From IMG/VR virus record IMGVR_UViG_3300009168_000041, positions 1 to 64,000 of that record: a stretch of DNA of 64,000 nt; one strand, given 5' to 3'. The position numbers and the translations under genes are program-made. Position 1 is the stretch's first letter. Each line of letters starts with the position of its first letter. The notes beneath the pieces are model-generated. The model searched no databases and was not told where the DNA came from. It saw nothing but the letters and a program-made list of their open reading frames with translations. The stretch comes from a virus. This document shows, piece by piece, positions 13,026-49,800 of this stretch.

Positions 13026-16000
13026 ATGGTACCGCTTGCTGGATATTCTTTCTGTCAGAAGTTCACCATTGATGGTTCTAAAATCATCGGTGGTCCGCAC
13101 TCCAAGTTTCCTCTTTACTTGAGACTTGGAAGCAATCCAGCAATGACGGGCGATGATGGCCCTATGCTCAGTGGGGCCGATATCCGGATCACGGCAGTTG
13201 ATGGCACGACCGTACTGCCCTACCAGATCGTTCCCGACGGCCAGTTTCTCTGTTTCGACGGCATGACGCCGGTGCCCTACTACCGCAACGGCACGGCCGA
13301 GCGGCTGTACGCTACCACCGTGGACACTGCCGGCGTGCAGCGGGTCTACAGCTACGACTACGACACGGGCAAAGTAGACACCGGCTCTCCGATCAACCGG
13401 GGAGAACGAGACGACCACGACAGCGGCAGTCTGTGCTTCCGGTCGGACGGGAAACTGATTGCCTTCGGGGCCTCGCATCCCGACACGGTTATCAGTTGGG
13501 CTATCAGCACCAATGCCGAAGATGTGACGACGTGGGGGGCGGCATCGACGATGACCCCCGGTGCCGCAAGCAGCACCTACACGTATCCCTACGCTTACCG
13601 GCTGACCAATGAAGGAACGGGCGTTGGGCGGGTGCGTCTGTTCTATCGGACTCAGCCCGGCGGCACGGGAGATAACAAGTGGGCCTACGTCGATTCGGAC
13701 GACGGCGGTGCAACGTGGTCTGCCGAGCAACTGTTTTTGTACTCAGGGAACGACTTTGGGTATTTGCAGCCGCGCATGAACGCGGCGGGCACGCGGATCG
13801 ACTTCGTTGCCACAGGCAGCTATCCTCCGACTGCGCTCTACCATTTTTATTACGACGGGACCTACCGGAATTCGGACGGTACGGAAATCGCCGGAGGGCT
13901 GCCCATCGACGTTGCCAACTTGGCGGCGTGCTCCAAGATATGGGACGGCACCGCGGCGACCCCGGACGATACGAGCTCGATTGCCGGAGCCGATCCGGTC
14001 CTGACGGACGACGGGCACGTTCACGTCCTGTTTCTCAAGCGGCCCAACGGAGACACCGACCACTACTGGATGATGCACGGGGAGTGGGATGGCTCGTCGT
14101 GGTCTACCGAGGCAATCGTAGATACCGGCGGGCCCTGGGATCCTGGCAATACGGGCTACGGCGGTGGCGGGTGTTTCGAGGATGGCGACGTGACGACCGC
14201 GTATCTGTGCGTCGCGGACGGAAGCGACGTACACCAGATCCAGAAGTGGCAGAAGGCCGGCGGCACTTGGTCGAAGACGCTCGACGTTACCGCGGGCGGC
14301 ACGCGGGACAACATCCGGCTCAAGATGGCGCAGGGGGCTGCCGGCAAGCGGGGCCGCCTCGTCTGGGTTGGAAACGGCCCATTCGTCACCTACAACAACT
14401 GGGGGCCAAATGGTATCAGGGTTTATCCGGGCTTCCGCGAGCGATGGGAGCACTGTTGGTTTCAGGCGGATGGAATTCAGAACGGTACTGACTTCACCGC
14501 CTACATCCACTGGGGAAAGGCAGACGCGACGGATGGATCGGACGCGGCGGCCGTTTGGGGCGCAACCGGGGCGGCGTATTCGTCCGTAGTTCATTGCAGC
14601 TACTCACTCACCGCGGACGTTGGATCGCAGTTCCTCGATTCGACGGGGAACAACGTCGATGTGACGGTGCGATCCGCCGGGACGAGCTGGCTATTCACTT
14701 GCCGGCCGGATTACTCCCAGCCGATTCCGGCGGTCATTGTGGGCGATGCGACGATCCCGGCAACGGTTCATCCCTCTTTTGATTCGTTGAACCTTGCAGG
14801 CGCTACGGCGGTTTCGATGGAAGTATGGGGCCAGTGGGCCGACGTGGGGCCAACCACCGTATGCTTTTTGGGAATCTATACGGCAACCAAGGGGTCGATC
14901 TATCTCGGCGTCGCGCAGAACGACGGCAACAAGATTCGCGTCCGACTGGTGCGCGAAGCAAACACCGTGGACGGCGGCAACGTGACCGGAGTGACCTGTC
15001 CTCCCGGAGAGTGGCACCGGCTGGCGGTGAATTTCCAGTCCGGCGCCAACAACGTCACGGCCCGATCCGACAAGAGCGGCGGTACGGTGCCTACCACGGG
15101 GACTGCCGCATTAGATGCTACGGCGTCCGATCCGATGGGTCTTGGCGCGATCAGTGCGACCGACACGGCTTCCGATGTCCACGGGCCGACTTCCGAGCCA
15201 CGGGTCACCGTGGGTGCAGTCCGATCGCCGGACTGGTTCGACACTCAGTTCGACAACATTTCGGATTACGCTAACTTTGTTACATGGGATGGCGTTGAGC
15301 CCGCGGAGCCTGAGTGGTGGAGCAGCACGAGTAGCTCATCGACGGAATTAGCGTCATGGTCTTCTTCAACATCTTCCAGCACCGTACAGGTATCGCGTTC
15401 ATCGAGCACCTCATCGAGTAGCAGCACTGTACTTGTATCGCGGTCAAGTTCGTCGAGTACATCGACAGCGCTGGCATCGTGGTCAAGCAGTTCGACAAGT
15501 TCTCGGACATACACAAGCTGGAGCACGCCATCGTCGGCGAGCACAACATCGCATAGCAGTTCAACAGTTGAAATATCGCGGTCCAGTTCAAGCAGCGTAT
15601 CCAGTTCAAGCCAATCGTCTTCGTCTTCAACGTCGGCTTCGTCGAGTTCATCAAGCAAATCGGCATCATCGGGGTCGTCGTCATCCACTTCGGCATCGTC
15701 TGCTTCGTCTAGTTCTTCAAGCAAGTCCGCGTCTTCGGAATCCTCCTCCTCATCCAGCAAGAGCGAATCGTCGTCAAGCACGTCGCTGTCTACATCGTCG
15801 CTTTCGGCGTCTTCGCAGTCGGAATCCTCATCGTCCACTTCGGCGTCATCGGCTTCGGCATCTTCGGCCTCGGAATCGTCTTCCTCTACATCTTCTTCTT
15901 CTACGTCTGCCTCGTCTCAATCCGTCTCCTCGCAATCGGCATCTTCGCAATCAGAGTCTTCTTCTTCCACCTCGGCATCATCGGCTTCGGCTTCCTCTGC

Positions 16001-18194
16001 TTCAGAATCCTCTTCCTCAACTTCCGGATCCTCTTCCTCGGCTTCCGTTTCAAGCAGCAGTGCAACCTCTGGTGGTGGCGGCGGCGACGAATCATCGTCT
16101 AGCACCAGCACGGCACTAATCAGCCGCTCTAGTTCATCTTCCTCATCTTCAACTTCCTCAACTCCATCATCCTCATCCACATCATCCTCAACTTCCTCAT
16201 CCAGCACGGTTGTTTTATCCTGGTCGAGCAGCAGTTCCTCTACTTCATCCAGTAGCTCGACGGCCGCACTCACCGCCGTTGAAGACGTATACCTCGACCC
16301 GGTTTCAGGCAGCGACGCGAACGACGGCATTACGGAATCGACGCCCGCCAAAACGGTCAACTACCTGCACGACCGCTATTCGTGGCGGACAATCCACCTC
16401 AAGGCCGGCACGACCACGCGGGAAGGAATCATGGTTCCGCGTAGCGGCACGGCGAAGCGGCCGGCGTCAGTGACGCGGTACGGGACCGGTGACGACCCGA
16501 AGATTACTGCCTGCGACTCCGCCCTCGGCGTGGCCGGAGATTGGACGGACCTCGGCTCGAACGTATGGAGCCGAACATGGGCCGACACGTGCCGCGTGGT
16601 GATTGTGGACGGGGCGATGGGCGTCCGCTGTTCGACCCAGGCAGCCGTCAACGCGGCGAGTGAATGGTTTTGGGACGCTGGCGTGCTCTACCTCTACTCG
16701 ACCAGCAACCCCGCAACGGCATTCACCACCCTGGAGGCCGGCAAGCGGACCTATGCGATCTACGCCCGCGGCCGCTCGCACGTCAAGGTTCACGACGTGG
16801 AAATCTACGGCGGCCAGACGCCCAACGCCGCGGACGCGACAGACGACGGCGGGGGCATCGTCATTGACGACGGCTGCTCGGACGTGGAAGTCGCCGATTG
16901 CGAGGTCTGGGGCTGTTATGGGTTCGGCATCGTCATGCGTGGCGTGACCGGGGCGACCGTTCACGGCGTGGCCGTCCACGACATCGACGGCGATCTGACC
17001 AACTCGACGCATGGTGACGGGATCGCCTTCAAGGCCGCGGCAGACGGCACGCAATCGACCGCGATCAAAGTGTACGCCATTACCGACGGCAGCGGTTGCG
17101 TTCGCAGCGTAGTCCACGGCACGGCAATTGACGACTTCCACGTTTACGACTGTAACTTTCAGGACTGCTACAACTACGCCATCTACGTTTTGCCCGACGA
17201 CGGAGAGACGAGTAACGATGTGGAAATCGGCCCGGGCATCGTAGTCGATCACATCGGGATCAACGCTTGCATTGCCGTCCACCTAAAGACCACGGGTACG
17301 CTGAGCAACGTCTGGATTCATGGCAACACAATCGACATGAATTCCGTGGTCGATAGAAATCACCACGGGATCAATCTCGGTACGAACGCCGGTACGAACA
17401 TTGTCGAGAAGAACAAAATCACCAACGCTCACAACGGCATTCGGATTTTCAGCGGCACGAGCACCATCCGCTATAACTCGATTTCAGGCTACACGCTCAG
17501 CAACATCGGTCTGTTTCTGACTGGTCAGGTTATAACCGCCTACGGAAACCTGGTGGATCACGCCGACCGATCCGTCGCAGTCGGGGAGCTATGCTCATGC
17601 ACCATCTACAACAACACCTTTACGCGATGGGTCAACTATTGTCTCTACATGGACGCGACCGGATCGGAGGCTGGGCAGTATACAATCTTCAAAAACAACA
17701 TTTGCTGGACGGCGCAAGCCACCAGCAACGGCGTTATCCAGCAGAATAACCCAAATCGGATTCTAACGTCTGACTATAATCGTATCTACACGCCCGACGT
17801 AACGAGCGTCTATTACCGTAAGCCCGTGTTCTACAATACGCTCGCCGCATGGGCCGCCGGAACGGGGCAGGACGCCCACAGCACGGCTGGGGTGCCTGAA
17901 TTCGTGGATACCGCGACCCAAGACTACCGCTTGGCAGCAGCAAGCCCGTGCATTGGGGCGGGGCTTGATTTGGGCTCGCCGTACAACGATATTCTGAGCT
18001 ACCATGCCACCTGGCCGGACCACGTGCGGCTCTACGACCAGGATGGGGCAGACGGACAATGGATGATAGGCTGCTACGGCCCCTATACGGCGGCGGGGCC
18101 CGCTGTGTGGGACGAATTGGATATCTTCCTGCCGGGGCCCGACGAGATGGACGTGTTCATTCCTGGGGCCGTTGAAATGGATGTGGCTGTTTAG
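13026..18194 (+). CDS. Giant multidomain virion/adhesin protein: split DUF2341, BNR-repeat domain, LamG-like domain, ~310-aa Ser/Thr tract, right-handed beta-helix
   Basis: DIRITAVDGTTVLPYQI and WFQ...AYIHWG (DUF2341 halves); DDHD, TYPY, SDDGGATWS (BNR); GEWHRLAV (LamG); YLDPVSGSDANDG ... DYRLAAASPCIGAG (beta-helix). Confidence 0.8.
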   Translation: MVPLAGYSFCQKFTIDGSKIIGGPHSKFPLYLRLGSNPAMTGDDGPMLSGADIRITAVDGTTVLPYQIVPDGQFLCFDGMTPVPYYRNGTAERLYATTVDTAGVQRVYSYDYDTGKVDTGSPINRGERDDHDSGSLCFRSDGKLIAFGASHPDTVISWAISTNAEDVTTWGAASTMTPGAASSTYTYPYAYRLTNEGTGVGRVRLFYRTQPGGTGDNKWAYVDSDDGGATWSAEQLFLYSGNDFGYLQPRMNAAGTRIDFVATGSYPPTALYHFYYDGTYRNSDGTEIAGGLPIDVANLAACSKIWDGTAATPDDTSSIAGADPVLTDDGHVHVLFLKRPNGDTDHYWMMHGEWDGSSWSTEAIVDTGGPWDPGNTGYGGGGCFEDGDVTTAYLCVADGSDVHQIQKWQKAGGTWSKTLDVTAGGTRDNIRLKMAQGAAGKRGRLVWVGNGPFVTYNNWGPNGIRVYPGFRERWEHCWFQADGIQNGTDFTAYIHWGKADATDGSDAAAVWGATGAAYSSVVHCSYSLTADVGSQFLDSTGNNVDVTVRSAGTSWLFTCRPDYSQPIPAVIVGDATIPATVHPSFDSLNLAGATAVSMEVWGQWADVGPTTVCFLGIYTATKGSIYLGVAQNDGNKIRVRLVREANTVDGGNVTGVTCPPGEWHRLAVNFQSGANNVTARSDKSGGTVPTTGTAALDATASDPMGLGAISATDTASDVHGPTSEPRVTVGAVRSPDWFDTQFDNISDYANFVTWDGVEPAEPEWWSSTSSSSTELASWSSSTSSSTVQVSRSSSTSSSSSTVLVSRSSSSSTSTALASWSSSSTSSRTYTSWSTPSSASTTSHSSSTVEISRSSSSSVSSSSQSSSSSTSASSSSSSKSASSGSSSSTSASSASSSSSSKSASSESSSSSSKSESSSSTSLSTSSLSASSQSESSSSTSASSASASSASESSSSTSSSSTSASSQSVSSQSASSQSESSSSTSASSASASSASESSSSTSGSSSSASVSSSSATSGGGGGDESSSSTSTALISRSSSSSSSSTSSTPSSSSTSSSTSSSSTVVLSWSSSSSSTSSSSSTAALTAVEDVYLDPVSGSDANDGITESTPAKTVNYLHDRYSWRTIHLKAGTTTREGIMVPRSGTAKRPASVTRYGTGDDPKITACDSALGVAGDWTDLGSNVWSRTWADTCRVVIVDGAMGVRCSTQAAVNAASEWFWDAGVLYLYSTSNPATAFTTLEAGKRTYAIYARGRSHVKVHDVEIYGGQTPNAADATDDGGGIVIDDGCSDVEVADCEVWGCYGFGIVMRGVTGATVHGVAVHDIDGDLTNSTHGDGIAFKAAADGTQSTAIKVYAITDGSGCVRSVVHGTAIDDFHVYDCNFQDCYNYAIYVLPDDGETSNDVEIGPGIVVDHIGINACIAVHLKTTGTLSNVWIHGNTIDMNSVVDRNHHGINLGTNAGTNIVEKNKITNAHNGIRIFSGTSTIRYNSISGYTLSNIGLFLTGQVITAYGNLVDHADRSVAVGELCSCTIYNNTFTRWVNYCLYMDATGSEAGQYTIFKNNICWTAQATSNGVIQQNNPNRILTSDYNRIYTPDVTSVYYRKPVFYNTLAAWAAGTGQDAHSTAGVPEFVDTATQDYRLAAASPCIGAGLDLGSPYNDILSYHATWPDHVRLYDQDGADGQWMIGCYGPYTAAGPAVWDELDIFLPGPDEMDVFIPGAVEMDVAV
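15321..16262 (+). repeat. Poly-Ser/Thr low-complexity coding tract
   Basis: Mixed Ser codons; internal ~30-aa duplication SASSQSESSSSTSASSASASSASESSSSTS. Confidence 0.9.
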
Positions 18195-18782: not shown

Positions 18783-19205
18783 ATGGGACTAGCGGGCTGG
18801 CTCGGCAATCAATGGGGAAACCTTATCGGCCGCAAGCCAGCCCGCACCCGTCGCAAAAACAACAAACTGAAGCTGGCAATCGTCGCGGCGAACGCCGAAA
18901 ACAGCCGGCTCATGGATTGCCTGGCCGCGGCGATACACGAGCGCGACGAATGGAAACAAGAGAGCGAACGCCAACAGGCGACCATCGAGGGCTTGCACGA
19001 TGACAATGCGGACCTTGAAAAGACTATCCGCCGGCTGGAAGAAGAGAAAGAATTACTCAACGCCGATGTCGAGGCGGCCAGCCGAATGATCGACACACAA
19101 CAGTCGTGGCTTGAGCGAATGCAGGCCGTAGAAACAGCCAAAAGGGCGGTAGCCGAGGGCACACGAGGAGCGTCAAATGGCATCGGTTCTTACCGCGTCG
19201 ATTAA
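18783..19205 (+). CDS. Coiled-coil hypothetical protein
   Basis: Heptad E/R/L-rich pattern; overlaps the portal start. Confidence 0.5.
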   Translation: MGLAGWLGNQWGNLIGRKPARTRRKNNKLKLAIVAANAENSRLMDCLAAAIHERDEWKQESERQQATIEGLHDDNADLEKTIRRLEEEKELLNADVEAASRMIDTQQSWLERMQAVETAKRAVAEGTRGASNGIGSYRVD

Positions 19206-21513
19206 GGCCCACCGCGCCCGCCGCGAGGCCGTGGGGCGCAGCCTAGTTTTATCCAAGGCATCATCTTCATCGTCGCCCATGTCCGTCATGACTGGCGGAT
19301 ATCCAAGCTTCATGGAATTGGCCTATGGTACGACGCTGGCCCGCCAGTCTGAGCAGTTCAGGCACTACTGCGGCTGGTCGTACACCGCAATCAATTGCAT
19401 CGCCCGCCGTCTTGCTGGCCAGAAGGTGAAGATGGGGCGCAAAGCCGAGGCGGCGGCCGAGATATCCACCTGGGCGTGGGACCGGCCGCCCGGCCGCAAG
19501 ATCCCCTTCCATACGCGACTCAAGGCCCCGGAATTCGTCAAGTCGATTGATTCGGACATCGAGGTAATCGAGACGCACCCGCTCTTAGACGCGGTGCAAA
19601 ATCCCAACCCAATCATGACATCATGGGACTTGCTGTTCTTCACCGTGGCCGGGCTGGAAATCACGGGGTTGGCCTATTGGTGGATTACCGATGACACTGG
19701 AGACGGTGAGGACCGGATGCAAATCTGGCCTCTGCCAAGCGATTGGGTGACGCCCAAGCACGGCAAGACGCTTTTCGAGAGCTACGTCATTCAGCCGCCC
19801 GGCCAGTTTGGGGTCAAGGTGGAAGTGGACGCTTCTGAGATTGTGCGGTTTCCGCTCATCGACCCCGCCAACCCACTTGGTACCGTTTCCCCGATGCAAG
19901 CGCAGGCCCCGGCCATAGCGGTTGACGAGGAAATTCAGGTTGCCCAGCATCGGGCGATGAAGAATGATGTGATTCCTGGCTTGGTATTTCGAGTTGGCAG
20001 GTTGCCATCAATGACCGGCATCGGCGAAGGGCCGCGGCCTGTACTTACAACAGAACAACGCCGCGAGCTTTATGACACCATTCGTGTGACTCACCAGGGG
20101 GTCGTCAATTTCCGAATGCCGCTCATCATCGACGGCATGATTGAGGGTGTAGATAGAGTTACCTACGCCCCGGCGGAACTCGACTTCCTCAACTCGGGCA
20201 ACGCGGTCAAGAGTCGCATTTTTCAGTCCTATGGCGTCAACCCGATCGTGGCCGGCGAGATTGCCGGTGTGAATCGGGCCCAAGCCGCCGTGGCTGATAG
20301 CATCTTCCTGCGCGGCGTCTGCAATCCGATCGCCGAAATGATCGGTCAAAAAATGACGCAGCACATCGGCAAGAAGGACGTTTTCTTCTGGCTGGAGATG
20401 CTAGAGGCAGACGATCCGGAATTGAAGTTGCGGCAAATGACAGAGGCAAGCCGCTTGAAGACGGAAAGCGGCAAAGGATTGGTGACGAAAAACGAGTGGC
20501 GGGCACAAATCCTTGGTCTGCCGCCAACGGACGATGGGGAAGAGACGGTAAGCAGTTCACCAGCCCCGCCGCCCAATCCGTTCGGAGTCGGTTTCCCTGG
20601 TCAGACGCCCGGCGGGCCGCCGAAGCTGGGGGAGAAGCCGGGGGATGAGGATGAAGACGGCAAGCCGCGTGGTAAGCTGCTGCCGCCGAAACCAGGTGGG
20701 GAAGGGAGCGGGGCAGGGAATGATACTGGTAACATTGAGGCAGCAGAAGAAAGCAGTAAGTCTGCTATCCGTCAAGTGAAGTTCGACTCCAATCAGCCGC
20801 GCGAACCGGCGGGAAGCCCCGAGGGCGGACAGTGGGCGGGAGGCGAAGGTAGTGGTGGTGGAAGTGGCGGCAGAATGGGTGATACATCGCGTTCATCGCG
20901 CCCGTTTGCTGATCCTTCTATCAAACGGGAATTTAATCCCAAAACTCTGCCGATTAATGCGCTGACATCAAGTACATCCAAGATATCTGATGATTCTAAG
21001 GAAGCGTTGAAGTGGTGGACTAGCGCAGATACCCAGTTCTCAAAAATAAACCGGGCGTTGTGGTCCGACAAGCCGATGCCGGCGAAACTCCAGTCTCTCC
21101 ATAATCGCATCGTCAAAGGTATTGAAGAGGCAAGACCGGTTGCTGAGGGTACCGTTGCCTATCGCGGGATTACACTGAAATCGACACGAGCTAGGGATGA
21201 ATTGGTCAAACAATTCGAGAAGTCGGCGGCCAGTGGTGAGCCTGTCACTATGAAAGGGTTTACTGCGACTTCGCTTGACCCAGAGCTATCTCGCAGTCTC
21301 TACGCCGGTGAACGATGGAAGGCTGTAATGTTTGAAATACGCCCAAAGAATGGCGTGTATCTATCACCTATTAGTACGGTGCCGAGCGAACAGGAATTGC
21401 TGATGAAACCCGGTGCCAAGTTTCGTGTAGCTGGGGTTCAGAAAAGCGTACTTGTCGGTTGGCAGACAGTTCAAGGCACGGGCCATATCCTCATTCAACT
21501 GGAGGAGGTGTAA
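19177..21513 (+). CDS. HK97-type portal protein fused to C-terminal ADP-ribosyltransferase (VIP2/Alt-like, R-S-ExE class)
   Basis: Portal motifs HPLL...NPNP.MT, GLAYWWI, IWPLP, SPM, NEWR...GLPP; then INRAL, AYRG, GFTATS, SEQELL. Confidence 0.85.
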   Translation: MASVLTASIKAHRARREAVGRSLVLSKASSSSSPMSVMTGGYPSFMELAYGTTLARQSEQFRHYCGWSYTAINCIARRLAGQKVKMGRKAEAAAEISTWAWDRPPGRKIPFHTRLKAPEFVKSIDSDIEVIETHPLLDAVQNPNPIMTSWDLLFFTVAGLEITGLAYWWITDDTGDGEDRMQIWPLPSDWVTPKHGKTLFESYVIQPPGQFGVKVEVDASEIVRFPLIDPANPLGTVSPMQAQAPAIAVDEEIQVAQHRAMKNDVIPGLVFRVGRLPSMTGIGEGPRPVLTTEQRRELYDTIRVTHQGVVNFRMPLIIDGMIEGVDRVTYAPAELDFLNSGNAVKSRIFQSYGVNPIVAGEIAGVNRAQAAVADSIFLRGVCNPIAEMIGQKMTQHIGKKDVFFWLEMLEADDPELKLRQMTEASRLKTESGKGLVTKNEWRAQILGLPPTDDGEETVSSSPAPPPNPFGVGFPGQTPGGPPKLGEKPGDEDEDGKPRGKLLPPKPGGEGSGAGNDTGNIEAAEESSKSAIRQVKFDSNQPREPAGSPEGGQWAGGEGSGGGSGGRMGDTSRSSRPFADPSIKREFNPKTLPINALTSSTSKISDDSKEALKWWTSADTQFSKINRALWSDKPMPAKLQSLHNRIVKGIEEARPVAEGTVAYRGITLKSTRARDELVKQFEKSAASGEPVTMKGFTATSLDPELSRSLYAGERWKAVMFEIRPKNGVYLSPISTVPSEQELLMKPGAKFRVAGVQKSVLVGWQTVQGTGHILIQLEEV

Positions 21514-21670: not shown

Positions 21671-21894
21671 CGCCGCAAACATTTTCTGTCTTTTCTATCT
21701 GGGGACCGACACCTTATACTCCCAACACGCTTCGGCAAGGCGAAGGGCCTGTGGTGTTTGGCGACGGAACAGTAGACGCCGAATGTGTGATAAAGTTTGC
21801 GACGTTCTTAGCACCCACTTGGGAAGATGCTTGCAAAGTGTATGAGGTCTTCCGCGGAGAGATCGAGTGGATGCGAGCGCAGGCACAGACGTGA
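21667..21894 (+). CDS. Hypothetical protein
   Basis: ATGA overlap with the previous stop. Confidence 0.4.
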   Translation: MTPQTFSVFSIWGPTPYTPNTLRQGEGPVVFGDGTVDAECVIKFATFLAPTWEDACKVYEVFRGEIEWMRAQAQT

Positions 21895-21911
21895 ATGCAG
21901 GCGTGAACGCA

Positions 21912-24215
21912 ATGTCTAATCGCGAATCTCTTATCGCCCGCAAGTCTTGGCTTCGCGACGCCTCGATTGCCCTCTGGACGAAAGCTGAACGCGAGGCGGC
22001 ACGCGAAGTCTACGATGCGGCATATCTCTTTTGTCAGGCCCAGCGGCGGGCCGTGGCGGCTGATTTGCGGCGGATTCACGACGACAGCCCCGGTACGAAC
22101 ACGGCGGACAAGATTGAGGCGGACGTTCTGAAAACAAAGGATTGGGAGAAGCTGCTGCGGGATACGGTTGGCGTGGCGGTGGTCAAGACGGTGGCGAGGG
22201 GGTATTTGGCGGCGAAGGCGGCGCAGGTGGGGCGGCGCAGGAGGCAGGCGGCGGGGGTGTGGGGGAAGGGTGGTCCTGGCTCGGGGAATTTCGGCCATGC
22301 TGGCAGGCCAGGAATGGTAGGTGGAAGCGCGGCGGGGGAAGGTGGTGGCACTTCTAGAGTGTCGTGGCCACATGGAGGAAGAAAGCCCGATACGGTATAT
22401 CGGATTCAACCGCAAGGTGCCAATTTACACGGTCAACAGTCCGAGACAAGCAACGGCGAGGTTATTGGTGGAGTTTTTGTATTTGATAACCTCAATGAAC
22501 TAGCTGCGATTGACTGGATGAATGAACCAGACGTTGAGCTTGTCGAAATTAGGATTGAACCCGGCGATACATTCCGAACATTTGACCAAGAGGGTACGGG
22601 ACTTCGGCAAGGCCGTGGTCAGGTTGTAGGTCGTATTCGCTTTGATGATGTTCGTGCTGCACGTGAATGGGCTGTCGAGGAACAAAGTAAAGACAACAAA
22701 AAGACCAGTAGAGTTGATGCCCGTAAATTTACTAAGCAAGGTTGGTCCGATGCCCCGCTCACCGACGCCGAGGAAGCCGAAATTCTCTCATTCGAGCTTC
22801 CGCCGTCCGTCACCCGCCGCGTCTTCGCTCACTCTGCCGAAATCATATCCAAGCCTTATTGGAAGGACGTGACGCAAACGGGGCTGGAATCCATGAAGTG
22901 GAGCATCCAGGAGGGCATCGAAGAGGGTAAGACGCTCAAGCAGATCGCCGATGACATCCAGGGGGACATTGACTCGGATAAAGTGCGTGCGAGGCGGATT
23001 GCAACGACGGAAGTTTCGGGGGCTTACGCCGCAGGCGCGCTTACCGAAGCCGAGGAAGCGGAAGCCGCGGGCGTGCGGATTGCGAAAACATGGATTACCA
23101 TCGGCGACGACAAGGTGCGTCCGCAGCACGAGGATATGGACGGTACGGTTGTGGAGGGTGCGGCCGGACTATTCAACGTCGATGGGGTCGAGGTGCCGTA
23201 TCCGGCGCACCCGGACTTGCCGGCAGCTAGTCGATGTAATTGTCGTTGCACGATGAGCATAGAGCCGATCCTTGAGGGTGAGACGGCCGCCCAGCATATC
23301 GAGGCGTACAAGGCGATAAGAGAGGCGGCAAGATGGCTCAAGTTCGACCCGGACCAGCCGCGTGACCCCGACGGCAAGTGGTCTGGCGGCGGTTCGTATC
23401 ACGCCGTCACTCGCGACAGCAACGGCACAGTTCGGCACAGCGATGGCAAAGTGAGCAAGGAACTCACGGCACGAGCGAAGGCGCTGCGTCTGCCGCCCGC
23501 GTGGACGGACTTGAAAATGAGCGCCGATCCCAAAAACGCTTTACAGGCCACGGGCAAAGACGCCAAGAGCCGCACCCAGTATGTCTATTCGGCGGCGCAT
23601 TCCGAGCGGGCGGCTGCCGAAAAGTTTGGGCGTGTGAAGCGGCTTATTAAAGAGCTTCCGGCCATCGACAAAAGCATTCGCCGCGATGCATCCACGAAAG
23701 ACGAGGCGGCCGTATTGCTTCTCATGCGGAAGACAGGGATTCGCATTGGCTCGGAACGGGATACGAAAGCTGAGAAGCAAGCTTATGGGGCATCGACATT
23801 GCGGGCAGAGCACGTCAAGATCGCCGGCGACAAGGTAACGCTCGCATTCACTGGCAAGAAGGGTGTTGATATCCGGCTGGAAGTCAAAGACAAGGAGCTT
23901 GTCGAGGTGCTCAGAAGTCGAATGGAAAAAGGCGGGAAGCTGTTTGACACTGACGACACGCGGGTAAGGGATTACATGCACTCAATCGACGGCAAATTCA
24001 AACCAAAAGACTTACGGACGATCAAGGCGGCGGACGTAGCACTGCAAACAATGAAGGGCATGTCGTCCCCGAAGAGCCAGGCGGAATTCAAAAAGTTCCG
24101 CAACGCGATAGGCGATGCAGTGGCGGCCAAGCTAGGAAACACGCGGGCCGTGGCGTTGGCAAGCTATGTGCCGCCCGAGGTCTTTTCACCGTGGAAGGCG
24201 AAGCTGGGGATATGA
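21912..24215 (+). CDS. Phage MuF minor head protein with an internal cargo domain and C-terminal DNA topoisomerase IB
   Basis: RARRIATTE, KTW...DDKVRPQH, NCRC (MuF); LPPAW, GKDAKSRTQY, GIRIG, GKKG, KDLRT, LGNT, SYV (complete TopIB catalytic set). Confidence 0.88.
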   Translation: MSNRESLIARKSWLRDASIALWTKAEREAAREVYDAAYLFCQAQRRAVAADLRRIHDDSPGTNTADKIEADVLKTKDWEKLLRDTVGVAVVKTVARGYLAAKAAQVGRRRRQAAGVWGKGGPGSGNFGHAGRPGMVGGSAAGEGGGTSRVSWPHGGRKPDTVYRIQPQGANLHGQQSETSNGEVIGGVFVFDNLNELAAIDWMNEPDVELVEIRIEPGDTFRTFDQEGTGLRQGRGQVVGRIRFDDVRAAREWAVEEQSKDNKKTSRVDARKFTKQGWSDAPLTDAEEAEILSFELPPSVTRRVFAHSAEIISKPYWKDVTQTGLESMKWSIQEGIEEGKTLKQIADDIQGDIDSDKVRARRIATTEVSGAYAAGALTEAEEAEAAGVRIAKTWITIGDDKVRPQHEDMDGTVVEGAAGLFNVDGVEVPYPAHPDLPAASRCNCRCTMSIEPILEGETAAQHIEAYKAIREAARWLKFDPDQPRDPDGKWSGGGSYHAVTRDSNGTVRHSDGKVSKELTARAKALRLPPAWTDLKMSADPKNALQATGKDAKSRTQYVYSAAHSERAAAEKFGRVKRLIKELPAIDKSIRRDASTKDEAAVLLLMRKTGIRIGSERDTKAEKQAYGASTLRAEHVKIAGDKVTLAFTGKKGVDIRLEVKDKELVEVLRSRMEKGGKLFDTDDTRVRDYMHSIDGKFKPKDLRTIKAADVALQTMKGMSSPKSQAEFKKFRNAIGDAVAAKLGNTRAVALASYVPPEVFSPWKAKLGI
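22734..22765 (+). repeat. 32-bp direct repeat copy 1 (encodes KQGWSDAPLT)
   Basis: 31/32 identical to 25178-25209. Confidence 0.9.
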
Positions 24216-29392: not shown

Positions 29393-29535
29393 AAATATAG
29401 ATGCTTGACAACCAGAACGAAAAACCCCGGCCGGGATTGGCGTCTCGACCGGGGCGAATCACAGACCGGCTTTCGCCAGAATGCGACCCGAGCAAGCCCA
29501 TTCTAGCGAGAGCCCCGACGAAAGGGAATCTCGCC

Positions 29536-36234: not shown

Positions 36235-36972
36235 ATGAATCTGAGTATTGAACTCAACGTCACACTCGCCTGCAACGCCCGCTGCCGCTGCTGCGACCGC
36301 CTATGCGACAAGTTCCCAGAACGGACTGAGCACATGGAAGTCTGCCAGGTGGAAAGATTCCTGACTGAGGCTCGGCTGGCCGGCGGCGTAAGCAAGGTTC
36401 GCGTCTTGGGCGGCGAGCCGACGCTTCATCCACAGATAGACGCAATCATGCGGCTTCTGGTCGATGCCATTCACGACGGAACGGTCGGGGCTGTCGAGGT
36501 GAACACCAATACGATATCGCCTACTTGGAAGGCCCACCGCGACGCCTGCCTTGATCCCAAAGTGCGATGGGACCGCTCGCCGCCGAATCGCAAACACCAC
36601 CTGCCTTTTTTGTGGGCCCCGAAAGACTTGGGGTTCGCGACCACCGGGCCGTGCCGCCACCCGGTTCAGTGTGGGTTCAGCCTGGATTCGCTCGGTTGGT
36701 TGCCGTGCAGCCCGGCGATTGCCATTACCCGCCTGTTTTTCGGCGGCCGGCATTACCGCCAGGCCATGCCGGACGGAACGGCGTGGGGGTGCGAAGACCT
36801 ATGCCCGCTGTGTATTTACTCGATGCCGCGCGGGTGGCGAATCAGGAACCGGCGAAAGCTTCGCGATTTTACGGCGGCGATGAAAGAGCCAACGCGGTCC
36901 TGGGCAGACGCTCTGAAAGAGGCGACACAGAAGGCACCTGCGGAAGCATCGCAAGGGAACCCCAATGGGTAA
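36235..36972 (+). CDS. Radical SAM protein
   Basis: CNARCRCC (CxxxCxxC), GGEPTLHP, Cys-rich C-terminus. Confidence 0.88.
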   Translation: MNLSIELNVTLACNARCRCCDRLCDKFPERTEHMEVCQVERFLTEARLAGGVSKVRVLGGEPTLHPQIDAIMRLLVDAIHDGTVGAVEVNTNTISPTWKAHRDACLDPKVRWDRSPPNRKHHLPFLWAPKDLGFATTGPCRHPVQCGFSLDSLGWLPCSPAIAITRLFFGGRHYRQAMPDGTAWGCEDLCPLCIYSMPRGWRIRNRRKLRDFTAAMKEPTRSWADALKEATQKAPAEASQGNPNG

Positions 36973-37889: not shown

Positions 37890-37946
37890 AAGCCCGGCGT
37901 CTGCGTTTGTGCCTGGTGCATGAATGCGGACGCCGGGCTTTTTTCG
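37890..37946 (+). terminator. Rho-independent terminator upstream of head genes
   Basis: 18-bp stem AAGCCCGGCGTCTGCGTT / AATGCGGACGCCGGGCTT followed by a T-run. Confidence 0.75.
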
Positions 37947-37964
37947 TTTTCGGGGAGCTTGGAA

Positions 37965-39293: not shown

Positions 39294-41110
39294 GCCCAGA
39301 CGAATTGAACCTGAAGCTCGCCGATATTGTCCGCGGACGCACGGATCGCATGTCGCTCTATGGCTCGGGTATCCGGCTGGCCAGTGACTACGTTCGCGGG
39401 GTTCTGGACGCGGCTGGCAGCGACGGGGCGGTAGCGTTTCCGGACGCCGCTGGGATGGTAAAGGAAGCGGAAAACCGGCTCGTGTATCGCAATGACGATA
39501 TGGCTTACGAGCCGCCCATGACGAGCATGGGGGCCATCGCCGGGTACTGCAAAAGCATCGGGGTCGATACGCCGCCGCGGTGCCTCATGGTATTCGAGAA
39601 TATCGTCACTACCAGCAAGGAAGACAGGGACGGCGACATTCTTCGTAGCGAAGGGGCGATGGTTGACCCGCAAATGCCGCTGCTCTGGCACCACATGCTG
39701 CCGGCAATCGTTGGCAAGATGCTTTCGGTGCGGGAACAGAACAGCAACCACGTCCGCGTGGCGTCGGCCATCATGGAATCGCCGCTCGGGAACGACGTGG
39801 CCAACCTAATCGAGTTTGGGGCGTTGCGAATCAGCCACGGGTTCCGGCCTCTGGACTTCCGGCCGCGTGAAAAGGGACTGCGAAATACGCAAGTGCCACG
39901 AGGATACGACATCCGTTCATACGAAATGCTTGAGGAAAGCGTGGTTTCGGTGCCAAGCAACGTGGGGGGCGTTATCACCGCGTGGAGCCGCGGGAAGCTT
40001 TGCACCCCAATGGTCAAGGCGTGGGCAAAGTCGCTCAACGAATCGCGGCCAGACAAGGTGTATGCGGTGGGTGTCGCGATTGGTGGTGCGGCCAGCGTGG
40101 TTGGAATGTCCGCGCCTGACGCCAACATGCAATCGACAGACCAGGATGCCTACACGCTTGGCACGGTCACGATCCCGGTGAATCTGGAGATCAAAATGAG
40201 CCGCAAAAACGCAGACCCCACAGAACCCGACGGCCAGAAGCCGACGCCCACCGATGAAGACGTTCGCCTCGGGGCCGACGCCAAGCGGCAGAAGGAATCG
40301 GGCGACAACCCGCCGTCGTGGGCCGTGGATGAGGCGTTGTGGGAGCGTGCGAAGAAAGCGGCCGATAAGTCATACGACGAATCGGACGAGGCGTACTGGC
40401 CGGTGGTGGTCACCATCTACCGAAACATGGGCGGAACAATCCAGGGCGACGCCCAGAAGTCTGTTGAACCCGAACCCAAGCCGGCGGCCAAGCCGGAGGA
40501 GAAAGTCATGGACCCCGAAGTCAAAACCGCGCTCTCCTCCAAAGCGATGGGCACTGAACCGGATGAGGAGGGAGATGGCGAAGACACCGCCGAAGCCAAG
40601 TGCCCTGAGTGCGGCGAAACGGTAACACCCGATGCCGATGGCAAGTGCCCTGAGTGTGGGGCTGCGATGAAAAAGCCGGAAAGCAAGAGTGCCGAAAGCG
40701 ACGCGGAAAAGTCCCCGGCACCCCTGGCTGACAAAGCAGGCCGCGTACTCTCCACCGCCAACGAGGCCGCTATTCGCACCGCCGCTGCCGCCCTCCAAGC
40801 GGTTCTCGACCAGGTAGGCGAGCCCGAGAAACAGAAGCCCGGCGAGCCGCCGGCCACCGACAAGCCGGACGAACAGCCGCCACGCGAAGGGCCGCCGGTA
40901 GAACTCAACCTCCCTGACTCTTCGCTTTCGCTTCAAGCGGCGTGCCAGACGGTGGTAACAAAACTATTCGACTTGGACCCCGCAGACACGTCGGCCGAAG
41001 ACGTGAAGATCATGCGGCGAACCAACGAAGCACTCGGCTTGGCCTTGGAACAGGTCAATAGGGCGAAACGGCGGCGGGCCGTTGAGAAGGTATTTTCCCG
41101 TAAGCGGTAG
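39290..41110 (+). CDS. HK97-family prohead protease with long C-terminal extension
   Basis: DRDGDIL, PLLWHH, ISHGF, EESVVSVPSN; extension with LWERAK..YRNMGG, double CPECG and KAGRVLS motifs. Confidence 0.85.
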   Translation: MSPDELNLKLADIVRGRTDRMSLYGSGIRLASDYVRGVLDAAGSDGAVAFPDAAGMVKEAENRLVYRNDDMAYEPPMTSMGAIAGYCKSIGVDTPPRCLMVFENIVTTSKEDRDGDILRSEGAMVDPQMPLLWHHMLPAIVGKMLSVREQNSNHVRVASAIMESPLGNDVANLIEFGALRISHGFRPLDFRPREKGLRNTQVPRGYDIRSYEMLEESVVSVPSNVGGVITAWSRGKLCTPMVKAWAKSLNESRPDKVYAVGVAIGGAASVVGMSAPDANMQSTDQDAYTLGTVTIPVNLEIKMSRKNADPTEPDGQKPTPTDEDVRLGADAKRQKESGDNPPSWAVDEALWERAKKAADKSYDESDEAYWPVVVTIYRNMGGTIQGDAQKSVEPEPKPAAKPEEKVMDPEVKTALSSKAMGTEPDEEGDGEDTAEAKCPECGETVTPDADGKCPECGAAMKKPESKSAESDAEKSPAPLADKAGRVLSTANEAAIRTAAAALQAVLDQVGEPEKQKPGEPPATDKPDEQPPREGPPVELNLPDSSLSLQAACQTVVTKLFDLDPADTSAEDVKIMRRTNEALGLALEQVNRAKRRRAVEKVFSRKR

Positions 41111-41170: not shown

Positions 41171-42799
41171 ATGAATCTCACGACCAACCTGAAGGGCTGG
41201 CTTGCGGAGAACTGCCAAGTTCCGGCAACGGCCAGCGACGAAGAGTTCAAGAAGGCCGCCAGCCTGGCGATCTTCGATGACAAGCTTTCCGCTACCAAAC
41301 TCGCCGAACTCACCGAGGAAGGCGGGCCGGACGCGGCCGACGTGATTGGGCAGGCACTCGCCAAGGCCCTGGCCCCGATTACCCAGAAAATGGCTTCCCT
41401 GGAAGAGCGGCAGTCGCAACTCCAGAACGCCGGGGCCCTCGGCTCCGCCCTGGAATCGGCCATTACCAACGTCAAGCCGACGGTCAGCGGCGAGCCCGAC
41501 AAGGTGCCGTCCAGCACCCGGGCGGCGCAACTGTTCGGGGCCGCCGACCCGCAAGTCCGCGTCAAGTCGCCGATGGAGCGGTACAGCCATACCAAGTCGA
41601 TGCTGACGTACCCCGACCGGGACAAGCACGGCCGCCCGCACCCGAAGGCCGGGCTGCCCATTTCCATGCCGAACGCCTTCAACAGTTCTTTCGAGACCAT
41701 CGCCCAGGATGAGACGGCGATTATCGGCGCGTTCGTCAAGTGGTCGGCGAACATGGGCGGCAAGGGCGTTTGCCCGCACCCGCTGCTTCGCATGACGGAG
41801 CACGACCAGCAACTGATGGAATACGCGATGCACGAGATGCCCTGGACGGGCTACCTCAACGCCTCGGGCCGAAACGAGATCGAGTTGACCGGAGAGAAGC
41901 TGACCGACTTCCAGCGGAAGACGCTGCTTGACGATTCCACGTCCGGCGGCCTGGAAGCCGTGCCCGTTGTCGTGGACCTCGCCCTGATTACCACGCCGGT
42001 TCTCTTCGGCGAACTGTTTCCCCTGGTTGAGGTGGTGCCGATTCCTCGGGGCCGCCGGATCGAGGGGGCCAGCATCGGCAACATCTCGTGGACCTCGGGC
42101 ACCGCCGAGGGCACGAGCATCACGCCGTTCAACACGGCGTCGATGATCGCGGCGTTCGACAACACCGTCTATCCCGTGGTTGCGGCCATCGAAGTCGGAA
42201 ACGACTTCCAAGAGGATTCGCCGTTCTCTATCGGCCAGACGATCATCAGCAAGGCCGGCGAGAAGCACATGGAATGGCTTGACAACCAGATCGCCAACGG
42301 CGACGGCACGACTGAGCCGCAAGGCATTTTCAACGCCAGCGGCACGACCGACATCGGCAACCCGTCCGGCGGGGCCGGCGCGGCGGCCACGATCACCGAC
42401 TACGAGAACCTGCTGTTTGGGATCTCGAAGGCGTATCGCAACACCCCGCAAGACCGGGCCCGCACCGTGTACATCGCCAACGACACGTCTTACAAGCGTG
42501 CCCGCGCGATCTACGTCGGGGCTGCCGACGCCCGGCGTCTGTTCGGAACGGACTACCAGAGCTACATGCTCGGGGACGTGCCGTTCAAGGTTCAGAACGA
42601 CATCGACAACGCCTACGCGGCGTGCTGCAATCTCCGCTACTACCGCATGTATCGCCGGCAAGGCGTACAGGTGGTGACGGAGACCGGCGGCCGGACGCTG
42701 CAGCTCCAGAATCTCACCCTCATCGTCATGCGGGCTCGCTGGGCTGGAAAGCTGACGCTGGGCGGGGCCTGCGCGTATTCCGACAACTGGCAGGCGTAA
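41171..42799 (+). CDS. Major capsid protein (HK97 fold) with N-terminal scaffold domain
   Basis: Follows the protease; SGGLEAVP and NGDGTTEPQGI motifs; strong C/G-ending codon bias. Confidence 0.88.
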   Translation: MNLTTNLKGWLAENCQVPATASDEEFKKAASLAIFDDKLSATKLAELTEEGGPDAADVIGQALAKALAPITQKMASLEERQSQLQNAGALGSALESAITNVKPTVSGEPDKVPSSTRAAQLFGAADPQVRVKSPMERYSHTKSMLTYPDRDKHGRPHPKAGLPISMPNAFNSSFETIAQDETAIIGAFVKWSANMGGKGVCPHPLLRMTEHDQQLMEYAMHEMPWTGYLNASGRNEIELTGEKLTDFQRKTLLDDSTSGGLEAVPVVVDLALITTPVLFGELFPLVEVVPIPRGRRIEGASIGNISWTSGTAEGTSITPFNTASMIAAFDNTVYPVVAAIEVGNDFQEDSPFSIGQTIISKAGEKHMEWLDNQIANGDGTTEPQGIFNASGTTDIGNPSGGAGAAATITDYENLLFGISKAYRNTPQDRARTVYIANDTSYKRARAIYVGAADARRLFGTDYQSYMLGDVPFKVQNDIDNAYAACCNLRYYRMYRRQGVQVVTETGGRTLQLQNLTLIVMRARWAGKLTLGGACAYSDNWQA

Positions 42800-47010: not shown

Positions 47011-47454
47011 ATGTTGGGCGAATTGCTCAAGGCCATCAAGATACGGTGGACCGCTAAAGGTCTAGCATCGACGTTTCCCGGCGGAATTTCCGAGGGGACG
47101 CCGGTGCCGGGGTCCGCAACATCGTGGCCGTTCGTTACCGTGAACATCTTGGGTTCGTCCAACACCGGCCGCCGCACCTCCTCGAACTCCACTCAATTCA
47201 ACCAGGAAGAGACTGTCACCGTCGAATTGATAGTCCATTCTCGCGGCGGGCTCTCTGCCGCTTCCACGCTATCCGAAGCGCTCAAGACGGCATTCGACAA
47301 TGCCGTCATGACGTTGGCTAGTGGCGTGACACTCTGCAAATTCTGGTACCAGGGCGAGATGGTCGTGGACGATCCGGACCACGCGAACGTGAAGGACTGG
47401 TCGATCACCTACCAGGCAGTTTTGGAACAAGCCAAGACGCTGGTGAATACATAG
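47011..47454 (+). CDS. Tail terminator protein
   Basis: WPFVTV motif, size and position. Confidence 0.6.
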   Translation: MLGELLKAIKIRWTAKGLASTFPGGISEGTPVPGSATSWPFVTVNILGSSNTGRRTSSNSTQFNQEETVTVELIVHSRGGLSAASTLSEALKTAFDNAVMTLASGVTLCKFWYQGEMVVDDPDHANVKDWSITYQAVLEQAKTLVNT

Positions 47455-47465: not shown

Positions 47466-48194
47466 ATGGCCACCAACCTATCCGCCACTGTGACCGGGGG
47501 TATCAATTACTCGTACACCAAATCGGACACGCTCAACGCCGTTTCCGAAGCGTTGAGCATGAACACGGCCAATTCCTATGCGTTCGGCAAGGGGTCCAGT
47601 AAGGCAGAGATCATCTATCGCGCCCGCGTCACAGTCACGACGGGCAGCCCCAACCAGGATATCACGCTCTATGGCGTACTGGCCGACGTGTTCGGCGATG
47701 ACGTGGATATCGAGGTTTTGCGCGGCATCTACATCCACAATCGAAGCACGACGGCCGGCGACAATATCTATGTCGGGCCGCTCGGGGTGAGCAACCCGCT
47801 CTTGGGGCCGTGGATTGACGCTGATGGGAACAACAAAGTGGGGCCGGGCGGTACGCTTCTGCTTGACAATCCGCTCGATGGGTACGCCCTGGAAAACGAC
47901 GCCGATACGATCCGCATTCAGTATCAGGGCACCTCTGGCAGTATCGACGTGGATGTCTGCTTCCTTGGAAACGAAGGCGACTTTGTTTCCTCGTCTTCTT
48001 CGTCTACGTCCAGCAGCAGCAGCAAGTCCGTCAGTTCCTCTTCCACGTCGAGTACAAACAGCAATTCGTCAAGCTCGACTTCAAGCAGTACGTCTAGCAA
48101 GTCCACCCGAAGCTCGTCTAGCTCGCAATCGGCGTCTAAGTCGTCGTCGTCAACCAGCAATAGCAGCAGTTCCGAAAGTTCGGTCGAGGCGTAG
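47466..48194 (+). CDS. Tail-associated protein, paralog 1, with C-terminal Ser tract
   Basis: DVFGD, NRSTT, VGP, DNPLDGY; Ser tract 47988-48183. Confidence 0.65.
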   Translation: MATNLSATVTGGINYSYTKSDTLNAVSEALSMNTANSYAFGKGSSKAEIIYRARVTVTTGSPNQDITLYGVLADVFGDDVDIEVLRGIYIHNRSTTAGDNIYVGPLGVSNPLLGPWIDADGNNKVGPGGTLLLDNPLDGYALENDADTIRIQYQGTSGSIDVDVCFLGNEGDFVSSSSSSTSSSSSKSVSSSSTSSTNSNSSSSTSSSTSSKSTRSSSSSQSASKSSSSTSNSSSSESSVEA

Positions 48195-48223
48195 TAGAGT
48201 CGTAAACCACACAAGAACCGGGT

Positions 48224-48736
48224 ATGTCCAACACCCTTGAAGCGACGGTCACTTGCGGGGCTCAATGGAGCTTTGAGCGGTCTGATGATATCGGAACCGC
48301 CAGGGACGCAAGCAGCGTGTCGCAAACCACGGAATATGCCAATGGCGAAGACGCCAGCCAAGCGACTGTCATTTTTCGCGACCGCCTCACGCTTACCCTG
48401 GCTGACACAACTCACGACATCGACTTGAAAACAGCCATAGATATCTACGGCGATGCCTGTGCTATGACGAGTGTGCGGGCGATTTACCTGAAAAACCGCA
48501 GTGCCGTCTCTGGCGATTGGGTGCGAATCGGGCCGCAGAGTGCCGCTAATGCACTCGCGAAGCCGTGGGGGTTCGTTGCCGCCGGATACAACCGGATTGG
48601 ATGCGGGGCAGTATTCTGCTTGAACGACCCAATCGACGGGTTCCCGGTAACTGATACTGCCAAGGTGGTTCGTATCAAGCATGATGGCGCGTCTTACTCC
48701 CTGGTTGTGGACATTGCAATCGTGGGGGTGCGGTAA
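48224..48736 (+). CDS. Tail-associated protein, paralog 2 (no Ser tract)
   Basis: DIYGD, NRS, IGP, DPIDGF. Confidence 0.65.
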   Translation: MSNTLEATVTCGAQWSFERSDDIGTARDASSVSQTTEYANGEDASQATVIFRDRLTLTLADTTHDIDLKTAIDIYGDACAMTSVRAIYLKNRSAVSGDWVRIGPQSAANALAKPWGFVAAGYNRIGCGAVFCLNDPIDGFPVTDTAKVVRIKHDGASYSLVVDIAIVGVR

Positions 48737-49800
48737 TGGCTGTTACCAAAAATCTTAACGCGACAACGACGGGCGGCGTCAAGTGGACGTTCTCAAAAGC
48801 CCAGGGGCTAGAGACGGCATCGGAAACCGTAACCTACTTCGGTGGCAGTACGCTCATTGGGGCGGGGCAAGTTTATACCGCCGACGTGACGCTGACGGAC
48901 GCCTCAATCAATCTGGATGTCGTATTGACCGGCGTTGGCGCACCGGATGATATCTACGGCGATGTGTTGGCGTTCAACCAGCTTATGGCCCTGGTTGTGT
49001 GGAATCGCTCGACCACGCCCGGGGATATGCTCAAGGTGGGGCCGATTCTCGCGTCCAATCCGCTGACAGAGCCGTGGGCCACATCCGATGGCATGAATGC
49101 AATCGGCCCCGGCGGCTCTCTCGTTATCGACAATCCGCTGGACGGGTACGACGTGGCGGCCGGAACGTCGGTTATTCGCATTCAGTACCAAGGTGTCAGC
49201 GGCTCGATTCGCGTCGGCGTGGCGGTCATCGGCTCAATTTCGACAGAGCTTGAGGAATCCAGTTCGTCGTCTGTCTCGTCATCGTCGAGTACCAGCACAT
49301 CGTCCGCGTCTTCTAGCAGCACGAGTTCCTCGTCTACTAGTTCGTCCAGCACAAGCAGCACGCTTCATATTCCGGAATCGAGTTCGTCATACTCGACGCT
49401 CTCGGACGTTAGTGAAAGCAGCAGCAGTACGGCCGGTGCTTCCTGGTCGTCATCGTCAAGTAGCTCATCGAAGTCGGTATCCAGTTCTTCAACTTCATCG
49501 TCCAGCACGGCAGAAGCAAGCTGGTCGTCTTCGTCTACTTCGGCAAGTTCTGCTTCTAGCTCGTCATCGTCTTCTGAGTCGCTGTCAAGTAAGAGCAGTA
49601 TGTCATCGTCGGCGTCAACGAGCAGCACGGCCCAGCAATCGTGGTCCAGTTCATCGAGCACCGGTCTTGAAAAATCAAGCAGTTCTCAGTCCAACACTAT
49701 GTCGGCATCCACTGCTACAAGTACATCGACAGAGGCACAGTGGTTCTATTCGTCGTCGTCGAGTCAATCCACAACGAGTACCTCGTCACCACCACCCTAA
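48736..49800 (+). CDS. Tail-associated protein, paralog 3, with C-terminal Ser tract
   Basis: DIYGD, NRSTT, VGP, DNPLDGY; Ser tract 49258-49788. Confidence 0.65.
   Translation: MAVTKNLNATTTGGVKWTFSKAQGLETASETVTYFGGSTLIGAGQVYTADVTLTDASINLDVVLTGVGAPDDIYGDVLAFNQLMALVVWNRSTTPGDMLKVGPILASNPLTEPWATSDGMNAIGPGGSLVIDNPLDGYDVAAGTSVIRIQYQGVSGSIRVGVAVIGSISTELEESSSSSVSSSSSTSTSSASSSSTSSSSTSSSSTSSTLHIPESSSSYSTLSDVSESSSSTAGASWSSSSSSSSKSVSSSSTSSSSTAEASWSSSSTSASSASSSSSSSESLSSKSSMSSSASTSSTAQQSWSSSSSTGLEKSSSSQSNTMSASTATSTSTEAQWFYSSSSSQSTTSTSSPPP

Follow-up and report, generated by a model that had tools for sequence, protein, structure and literature searches.

A short motif conserved at the protein level punctuates the poly-serine tracts of particle proteins in an 87.6-kb phage record

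Long runs of serine encoded by mixed codons are known from the polyserine linkers that join folded domains in the secreted carbohydrate-active enzymes of Cellvibrio, Saccharophagus and Teredinibacter. To our knowledge, such linkers consist of Ser runs alone, and no hydrophobic or Trp/Arg punctuation recurs in them. Here we describe four poly-Ser tracts in the IMG/VR record IMGVR_UViG_3300009168_000041, an 87.6-kb single-contig phage record with a G+C content of 58%, whose first 64 kb (64,000 nucleotides) are hereafter called the window. The tracts carry copies of the motif S-T-[A/V]-x-[A/V/I/L/Q]-S-[W/R/M/G]-SSSS, in which the W/R/M/G residue is taken as position 0 and the Thr as position -5; genes are named after their first nucleotide. 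The layout of polyserine linkers, a Ser run between folded domains, was seen in the product of gene 13026 only. There tract 1 joins a BNR_4-type N-terminal part (residues 95–364) to a right-handed beta-helix (residues 1370–1532), and because of these two flanking parts the product is regarded as fibre-like or depolymerase-like. In contrast to the linkers, the other three tracts are C-terminal tails that end the proteins of genes 37920, 47466 and 48736, and the carriers are phage particle proteins.

The Gram-positive serine-rich repeat glycoproteins are built of S-[A/V/T/E] dipeptide-type repeats and need GtfA/B and the accessory Sec system (PMC6973325, PMC7948813). They likewise present a very long Ser-rich, presumably extended and glycosylated region on a surface protein, whereas in the phage the tracts (61% Ser) are made up of long, pure runs of Ser, between which a hexapeptide stands every 13–100 residues. 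No GtfA/B-type family turned up among the open reading frames (ORFs) scanned, and an accessory Sec-type export system is inapplicable to a phage particle. Virion glycosylation has been described for the mycobacteriophages Che8, Corndog and Myrna (Freeman et al., 2023, as summarised in PMC12363180). According to that summary, phage sugar genes lie near structural genes and the presumed targets are particle surface proteins, as in the present phage. In contrast to these phages, no GT-A or GT-B glycosyltransferase was recognised here, and the candidate acceptors are extreme poly-Ser tracts with a conserved internal motif. We know of no such internal motif in Che8, Corndog or Myrna.

Tracts were defined as stretches in which Ser makes up at least 50% of the residues. 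When all six frames of the genome were scanned, exactly four of them were found, all on the + strand and all within long ORFs (Table 1). A first-pass annotation, made from the sequence alone, had listed 15 copies of T-x-x-x-S-[W/R/M], and all of them were found: seven in gene 13026, five in gene 37920 (there called the 37965 gene) and three in gene 48736. The enrichment over shuffled tracts that it proposed as a check was evident. In 20,000 within-tract residue shuffles, T-x3-S-[WR]-SS occurred 0.55 times on average and at most six times, against 15 copies observed, a number reached by none of the shuffles. For the stricter pattern ST-[AV]-x-[not S]-S-[WRMG]-SSS, 15 copies stood against 0.016 in the shuffles. 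The second element that had been noted, SSKS[VEA]SS, was found nine times against 0.17 and was indeed present in all four tracts. The tracts contain 22 W, R and M residues; of these, 16 are preceded by a T at -5 and 19 by an S at -1. In the 16 motif copies compared, T at -5 and the S before it are invariant, A or V follows the T in 15, and the residue before the S at -1 is A, V, I, L or Q. The copies are not evenly spread: in the fibre they adjoin the folded parts, four following the N-terminal part and two preceding the beta-helix, and the 160-residue middle of the tract has none.

The claim that the motif recurs in the tracts of unrelated genes holds for three gene families. It does not hold for four, because genes 47466 and 48736 are paralogous. 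Together with gene 48224 they form three tandem jelly-roll paralogues. In the 47466 tail both motif sites are eroded and no intact T-x3-S-[WR] is left (remnant KSTRSSSSS), although the orthologues of this protein keep both. The 120-residue N-terminal head of the 37920 protein is unrelated to the jelly-roll paralogues. It has no detectable relatives: with the N-terminal 122 residues as query, a protein search gave no homologue and the Atlas no usable match.

Relatives of the 47466 protein made it possible to follow the motif beyond this phage. Its core family has 652 detectable members, most of which are about 170 residues long and lack a tail. Six metagenomic orthologues (P0005–P0009 and L002:1813-2544), with cores 57–69% identical, all have Ser tails. 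In these tails ST-x3-S-[W/R/M] stands at a single column of the alignment, except that the P0005 copy is eroded and the L002 copy was misplaced by MAFFT. ST-V-x-x-S-G stands at a second column, 26 residues further on in the four orthologues in which both copies are intact and ungapped. The paralogue 48736 has W-type copies at both of these columns. The stretch between the two columns, with SSKSS[Q/R]SSSS, is conserved too, and the motif is part of a larger unit, about 13 or 26 residues long, in which SKS[V/E/A] is also present. Absence of the motif from homologous tracts, which the first-pass annotation had named as a refutation, was thus not borne out, since the motif stands at orthologous columns in the tails of six relatives. 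The loci L001 and L002 are two short loci of one groundwater metagenome (0.1-µm fraction by contig names) drawn from JGI/ENA metagenome contigs. Both (L001:1609-3319 and L002:1813-3087) have a terminator-like gene, then a tailed and then a tail-less jelly-roll paralogue, followed in L001 by the start of a third.

More distant members of the family also have tails, with S-V-x-[F/V/I/Y/L]-S breaking up the poly-Ser. In the tails, hydrophobic residues are clustered at separations of 1–3 residues and depleted at 4–5. Searches of IMG/VR with single proteins and with the alignment A1 gave no relatives, and a search of GTDB genome contigs with the same alignment gave none. A query with an 84-residue tail matched 596 pattern stretches, none of which passed tblastn. 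As a separate observation, the S-Q-G C-terminus of the 37920 protein (39270–39290) recurs in the distant tailed jelly-roll members P0010, P0011 and P0022 from other metagenomes; it could be a C-terminal end signal common to the Ser tails of otherwise unrelated proteins.

The underlying DNA was compared with the protein pattern. All six Ser codons are used in the tracts, and their order cannot be distinguished from chance (identical codons adjoin 68 times, against an expectation of 64.1 ± 7.0), which leaves a selection for codon alternation against slippage unsupported. At the conserved Ser positions of the motif, codon identity between copies was 0.17–0.31, against 0.19 expected from tract-wide usage. 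Between the tails of L001 and L002, 46 Ser positions are identical; the same codon is used at 14 of the 46, and at 13 the codon has switched between the TCN and AGY boxes. Repeat finders revealed weak 15–30-nt periodicities only (78–92% match), none of which links motif copies, and no long DNA repeats. Microsatellite expansion was rejected, since there are no tandem identical DNA units and the codon order looks random. Words of 12 and 15 nt common to tracts of different genes were not in excess over codon-resampled versions of the same proteins, the sole marginal case being the 37920 and 48736 tracts (p about 0.05–0.1), and recent gene conversion between tracts was rejected on these grounds. 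A DNA-level signal was rejected as well, because no nucleotide word is present in all copies (GGTC occurs in 12 of the first 15 only).

These results demonstrated that the motif exists and is not a product of chance, that relatives keep its position, and that its conservation is confined to the protein level. Because relatives keep it while the underlying codons are scrambled, it is selected as a protein element and is neither a DNA repeat nor a recently exchanged cassette. The first-pass annotation had left open whether the grammar of the tracts was kept by selection or by exchange among genes. Selection was supported, as the motif is kept in six relatives with scrambled synonymous sites; exchange was not, as there are neither long repeats nor, apart from the marginal pair, an excess of common words. 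Ser- or Thr-rich tracts on phage particle proteins are usually regarded as spacers without features, but the Ser spacer of this phage has a conserved internal syntax that survived complete turnover of synonymous sites.

Two further observations concern the longest tracts. Their longest common word (15318–16286 versus 38286–39290) is 12 nt, against a mean of 14.8 in the codon-resampled null, and their Ser codon preferences differ, TCA being common in one and AGC in the other. The fewer long common words may reflect recombination avoidance, or only gene-specific codon use.

Within the motif, two positions covary. Among the 16 window copies, V or I at -2 is paired with R or M at position 0 in 6/6 cases and never with W, and A, L or Q at -2 is paired with W in 9/10 (Fisher p = 0.0009). 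No such coupling was seen for position -4 (p = 0.13). When the orthologues were included, the coupling between -2 and 0 gave p = 0.008. As residues two apart share one face of an extended chain, this covariation looks like size compensation.

A parallel comes from the fibre. P0162, the only homologue found for the first 753 residues of the fibre (33% identity, E 9e-91), ceases to be homologous at the junction between the N-terminal part and the Ser tract. After the junction, residues 756–974 of P0162 contain about seven repeats of about 20 residues, GALAG-x-x-T-[V/I]-x-[V/I]-x-[A/P]-[S/T]-G-T-L, rich in Ala, Gly, Thr and Val and without a match to any Pfam family. Judged from the sequences alone, these repeats have the same T-V-x-V core as the fibre motif, with Ala/Gly linkers replacing Ser. 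Repetitive beta-strand phage fibre shafts, of which P0162 serves as an example, would thus share the T-[V/I]-x-[V/I] core at the same junction; they differ in that the linkers are of the GALAG type and not poly-Ser, and in the spacing (about 20 residues versus 13–15).

The structure of the 48736 protein was predicted with AlphaFold2. Its core is a confident jelly roll, with a predicted local distance difference test score (pLDDT) above 90. The matches of this fold are generic for jelly rolls. Among them are the capsid cement proteins of KHP40 (Z 8.1) and Pam1 (Z 6.8), with scores not above those of Ena3A (Z 8.8) and satellite-virus coats (Z 8.4). When residues 1–320 were modelled in three copies, the interaction prediction score from aligned errors (ipSAE) was 0.44, against 0.03 for the best control; in the calibration sets, 20 of 30 solved pairs but only 1 of 23 single chains attained this mark. 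Separate runs agreed in at least 14% of the contacts, and the partner pLDDT was at least 50. Self-association of the 48736 core is supported by this model, and because of it several tails would emerge side by side. The paralogues follow the tail-terminator-like gene, a position that fits a head or tail location.

On these grounds we tentatively favour a reading in which the motif acts between poly-Ser spacers as a sticker, or beta-staple, of short extended form. The six residues would be in an extended (beta) conformation that brings positions -4, -2 and 0 to the same face, and they would provide defined points of contact on Ser stalks that otherwise lack features and are probably O-glycosylated. 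Such contacts may form between neighbouring chains of an oligomer, as in the fibre and the self-associating jelly-roll subunits, or against the virion surface. In the concept of stickers and spacers, which comes from eukaryotic condensate proteins, aromatic and Arg stickers are set in Ser/Gly spacers. By analogy only, position 0 likewise alternates between Trp and Arg, the classic stickers, in Ser spacers and at conserved intervals. The reading draws on the conservation in orthologues, the scrambled codons, the same-face covariation, the P0162 repeats, the punctuated distant tails, the placement of the copies in the fibre and the predicted self-association of the core. As a contact element, the motif would show by what means register can be given to a disordered coat.

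Several points weigh against an extended contact element. The AlphaFold2 tail of the 48736 protein is disordered (pLDDT about 40) and has no strands, and the confident interface of the three-copy model is confined to the jelly-roll core (residues 13–165) and excludes the tails; the lack of tail contacts in that model was taken as uninformative about the tails. Copies such as TAGASW and TAEASW are poor beta-formers, and a packing residue would be expected to vary less than position 0, at which W, R, M and G are all allowed. The covariation test makes no correction for common ancestry among the copies, and the rule fails in two orthologues, which have A at -2 and R at 0. The P0162 parallel consists of one sequence only. 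Finally, the motif is dispensable on at least one carrier, because the 47466 protein of this phage lost both copies.

In second place, and not exclusive of the sticker, stands the possibility, which we consider rather unlikely, that a protein O-glycosyltransferase encoded by the phage uses the motif as an acceptor or priming determinant. Such an enzyme would recognise Ser/Thr with apolar flanks, namely the T at -5 followed by A/V and the S at -1 between a hydrophobic residue and W/R, as the preferred or first sites for coating the Ser tract with sugar, possibly with a CMP-activated ulosonic acid. The invariance of the T and the nearly constant A/V after it fit such a determinant. Maf transferases act without a sequon. 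Their targets are Ser/Thr residues that lie close to hydrophobic ones or within low-complexity regions, the flanks being apolar in Aeromonas caviae, and CMP-Kdo is among the sugars they can use (PMC11339370). The T and S of the motif lie in just such surroundings, and as in Maf flagellin O-glycosylation a CMP-sugar synthetase gene (55442–56215) lies beside the candidate transferase. The sequon of Bacteroidota O-glycosylation, D-(S/T)-(A/I/L/V/M/T), fits only in its (S/T)-(A/V) half, as Ser and not Asp precedes the T in every copy.

The sugar-nucleotide genes, which lie within or beside the virion module and include the epimerase/dehydratase, the cytidylyltransferase, the hexapeptide acyltransferase and the two methyltransferases, are solid, whereas the transferase is only a weak lead from sequence comparison. 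The product of gene 56212 matches a PHROG sialyltransferase family weakly, and its language-model neighbours carry the MptE-like PF01973 (scores 0.91–0.93) and WaaZ_KDO_III domains; these neighbours also hint at a host among the Planctomycetota. A Pfam scan of this product gave no family at E ≤ 0.01, a phmmer search against PDB chains gave nothing, and the single-sequence fold (pLDDT 33) was unusable. Pfam recognised no glycosyltransferase among the 40 window ORFs scanned, and the PF01973 hidden Markov model had no match at E ≤ 1 in the six frames of the whole genome, so that no glycosyltransferase was securely identified. Other features also speak against an acceptor site. If the sequon were required, two regions would stay bare, namely the 160 residues in the middle of the fibre tract and the entire 47466 tail. 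Position 0 is variable (W, R, M or G), and P0162 has the T-V-x-V core in a non-Ser context. Moreover, the acceptors would be predicted disordered virion tails and not the folded D1–D3 surface of flagellin. If the motif does mark glycosylation sites, it offers a testable sequon for an enzyme class without one.

In its strongest form, S-T-[A/V]-x-[hydrophobic]-S-[W/R] would be a true recognition or priming sequon. The enzyme would be a phage protein O-transferase for ulosonic acids (Kdo or nonulosonic) by which the particle is coated with sugar. We regard this as distinctly improbable; if true, a sequon would be defined for the first time for a Maf-like enzyme, and it would serve as a portable glycosylation tag. 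Whether contact element or acceptor, the motif is a short peptide amenable to mutation or transplant in a simple experiment. The first-pass annotation had suggested both kinds of function, a glycosyltransferase sequon and a beta-strand anchor, and the support for each is indirect.

It is very unlikely that the motif is a neutral relic of tracts that grew by duplicating an ancestral unit of about 13–26 residues that happened to hold it. The copies do belong to a larger repeating unit with SKS[VEA], the DNA has weak repeats with a period of 15–30 nt, and the 47466 tail lost its copies. Nevertheless, the T, S and hydrophobic positions persist at orthologous columns although synonymous sites are scrambled within and between genomes. 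Likewise, W persists although the single-base change TGG to TCG would turn it into the surrounding Ser, and coupling of position 0 with -2 but not with -4 is not expected from ancestry alone. Extremely unlikely is another processing or modification site, be it for protease cleavage (small-x-small before Ser), a radical-SAM enzyme or an Arg-specific ADP-ribosyltransferase: [A/V]-x-[A/V] before Ser resembles the -3/-1 small-residue rule, a radical-SAM gene lies near gene 37920 and the phage encodes ADP-ribosyltransferase domains, but V, I and L at -1 of such a site are unfit for signal-peptidase-type rules, the radical-SAM match is to the generic CxxxCxxC core only with no peptide-maturase subfamily above its cut-off, W, M and G lack the guanidino group needed for ADP-ribosylation, and the distance from W to K varies from 9 to 17 residues.

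Table 1. Ser tracts, motif copies and neighbouring genes of the phage record
Feature	Position	Strand	Remarks
Ser tract 1	15312–16286	+	about 325 aa, 61% Ser; in gene 13026–18194, 1722-aa fibre/depolymerase-like protein
TELASW, TVQVSR, TVLVSR, TALASW	15342–15482	+	starts 15342, 15381, 15426, 15465; spacing 13, 15, 13 residues; right after fibre N-terminal domain
TVEISR	15564–15581	+	tract 1
SSKS[A/A/E]SS units	15651–15773	+	starts 15651, 15717, 15753; motif-free middle of tract 1
TALISR, TVVLSW	16110–16223	+	starts 16110, 16206; just before C-terminal beta-helix part of fibre
Ser tract 2	38262–39290	+	about 343 aa, 61% Ser; C-terminal three quarters of 457-residue protein, gene 37920–39293
TAEVSR, TAEASW, TVVASW, TAGASW, TVEISM	38319–39236	+	starts 38319, 38622, 38937, 39054, 39219; tract 2
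Gly variant TVVASG; degenerate TSSSSW	38724; 38496	+	tract 2; additional to the first-pass list
SSKS[E/V/V/V]SS units	38979, 39003, 39114, 39177	+	tract 2
Jelly-roll paralogue 1	47466–48194	+	242 aa; Ser tail 47952–48191, roughly 70 aa
SSKSVSS	48018	+	47466 tail
Jelly-roll paralogue 2	48224–48736	+	170 aa, without Ser tail
Jelly-roll paralogue 3	48736–49800	+	354 aa; Ser tail 49216–49728
TAGASW, SSKSVSS, TAEASW, TAQQSW	49429, 49465, 49507, 49627	+	Ser tail of 48736 protein
NAD-dependent sugar-nucleotide epimerase/dehydratase	26011–27051	+	E 9e-49
Methyltransf_24/TylF-like, sugar-type methyltransferases	32740–33321 and 59356–59976
Hexapeptide acyltransferase	34867–35457
CMP-sugar synthetase-type cytidylyltransferase	55442–56215	+	CTP_transf_3 E 3e-27, 96 bits vs cut-off 22.6
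Candidate ulosonic-acid transferase (weak lead)	56212–57144	+	overlaps cytidylyltransferase gene; PHROG sialyltransferase E 8.5e-4
Portal protein with C-terminal ADP-ribosyltransferase domain	19177–21513		Phage_portal E 5e-32; ADPrib_exo_Tox E 2e-11
MuF-like protein fused to type IB topoisomerase	21867–24215		Topoisom_I E 6e-23, plus Top1B_N_bact
ART-PolyVal ADP-ribosyltransferase domain gene	24191–25243		directly after MuF/topoisomerase gene
Radical-SAM gene	36235–36972		about 1 kb upstream of gene 37920; generic N-terminal CxxxCxxC core match only
Prohead protease	39290–41110
Major capsid gene	41171–42799
Tail-terminator-like gene	47011–47454		precedes jelly-roll paralogues

Gene 37920 lies directly upstream of the prohead protease and major capsid genes, and besides the particle genes listed in Table 1 a head-tail adaptor was recognisable. 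Searches of deposited phages with the capsid protein and the jelly-roll core gave no match. The CheckV-type completeness of the record is 79%. It was found in one listed public run, a freshwater-sediment metagenome that may be its source; no RNA run was listed. Despite about 560 Ser codons in the four tracts, tRNA-Ser is absent from the phage, in which only tRNA-Ile and tRNA-Met were found. The tRNA-Ile (anticodon TAT, 29035–29129) lies inside the sugar-gene block and adjoins an ORF with an IS1-type DDE transposase segment (29401–30462). Outside the window, the phage encodes a Ro60/TROVE protein with a vWA domain (L003:1624-3342, genome positions 65624–67342; TROVE E 2.5e-43, vWA_Ro60 E 5e-58).

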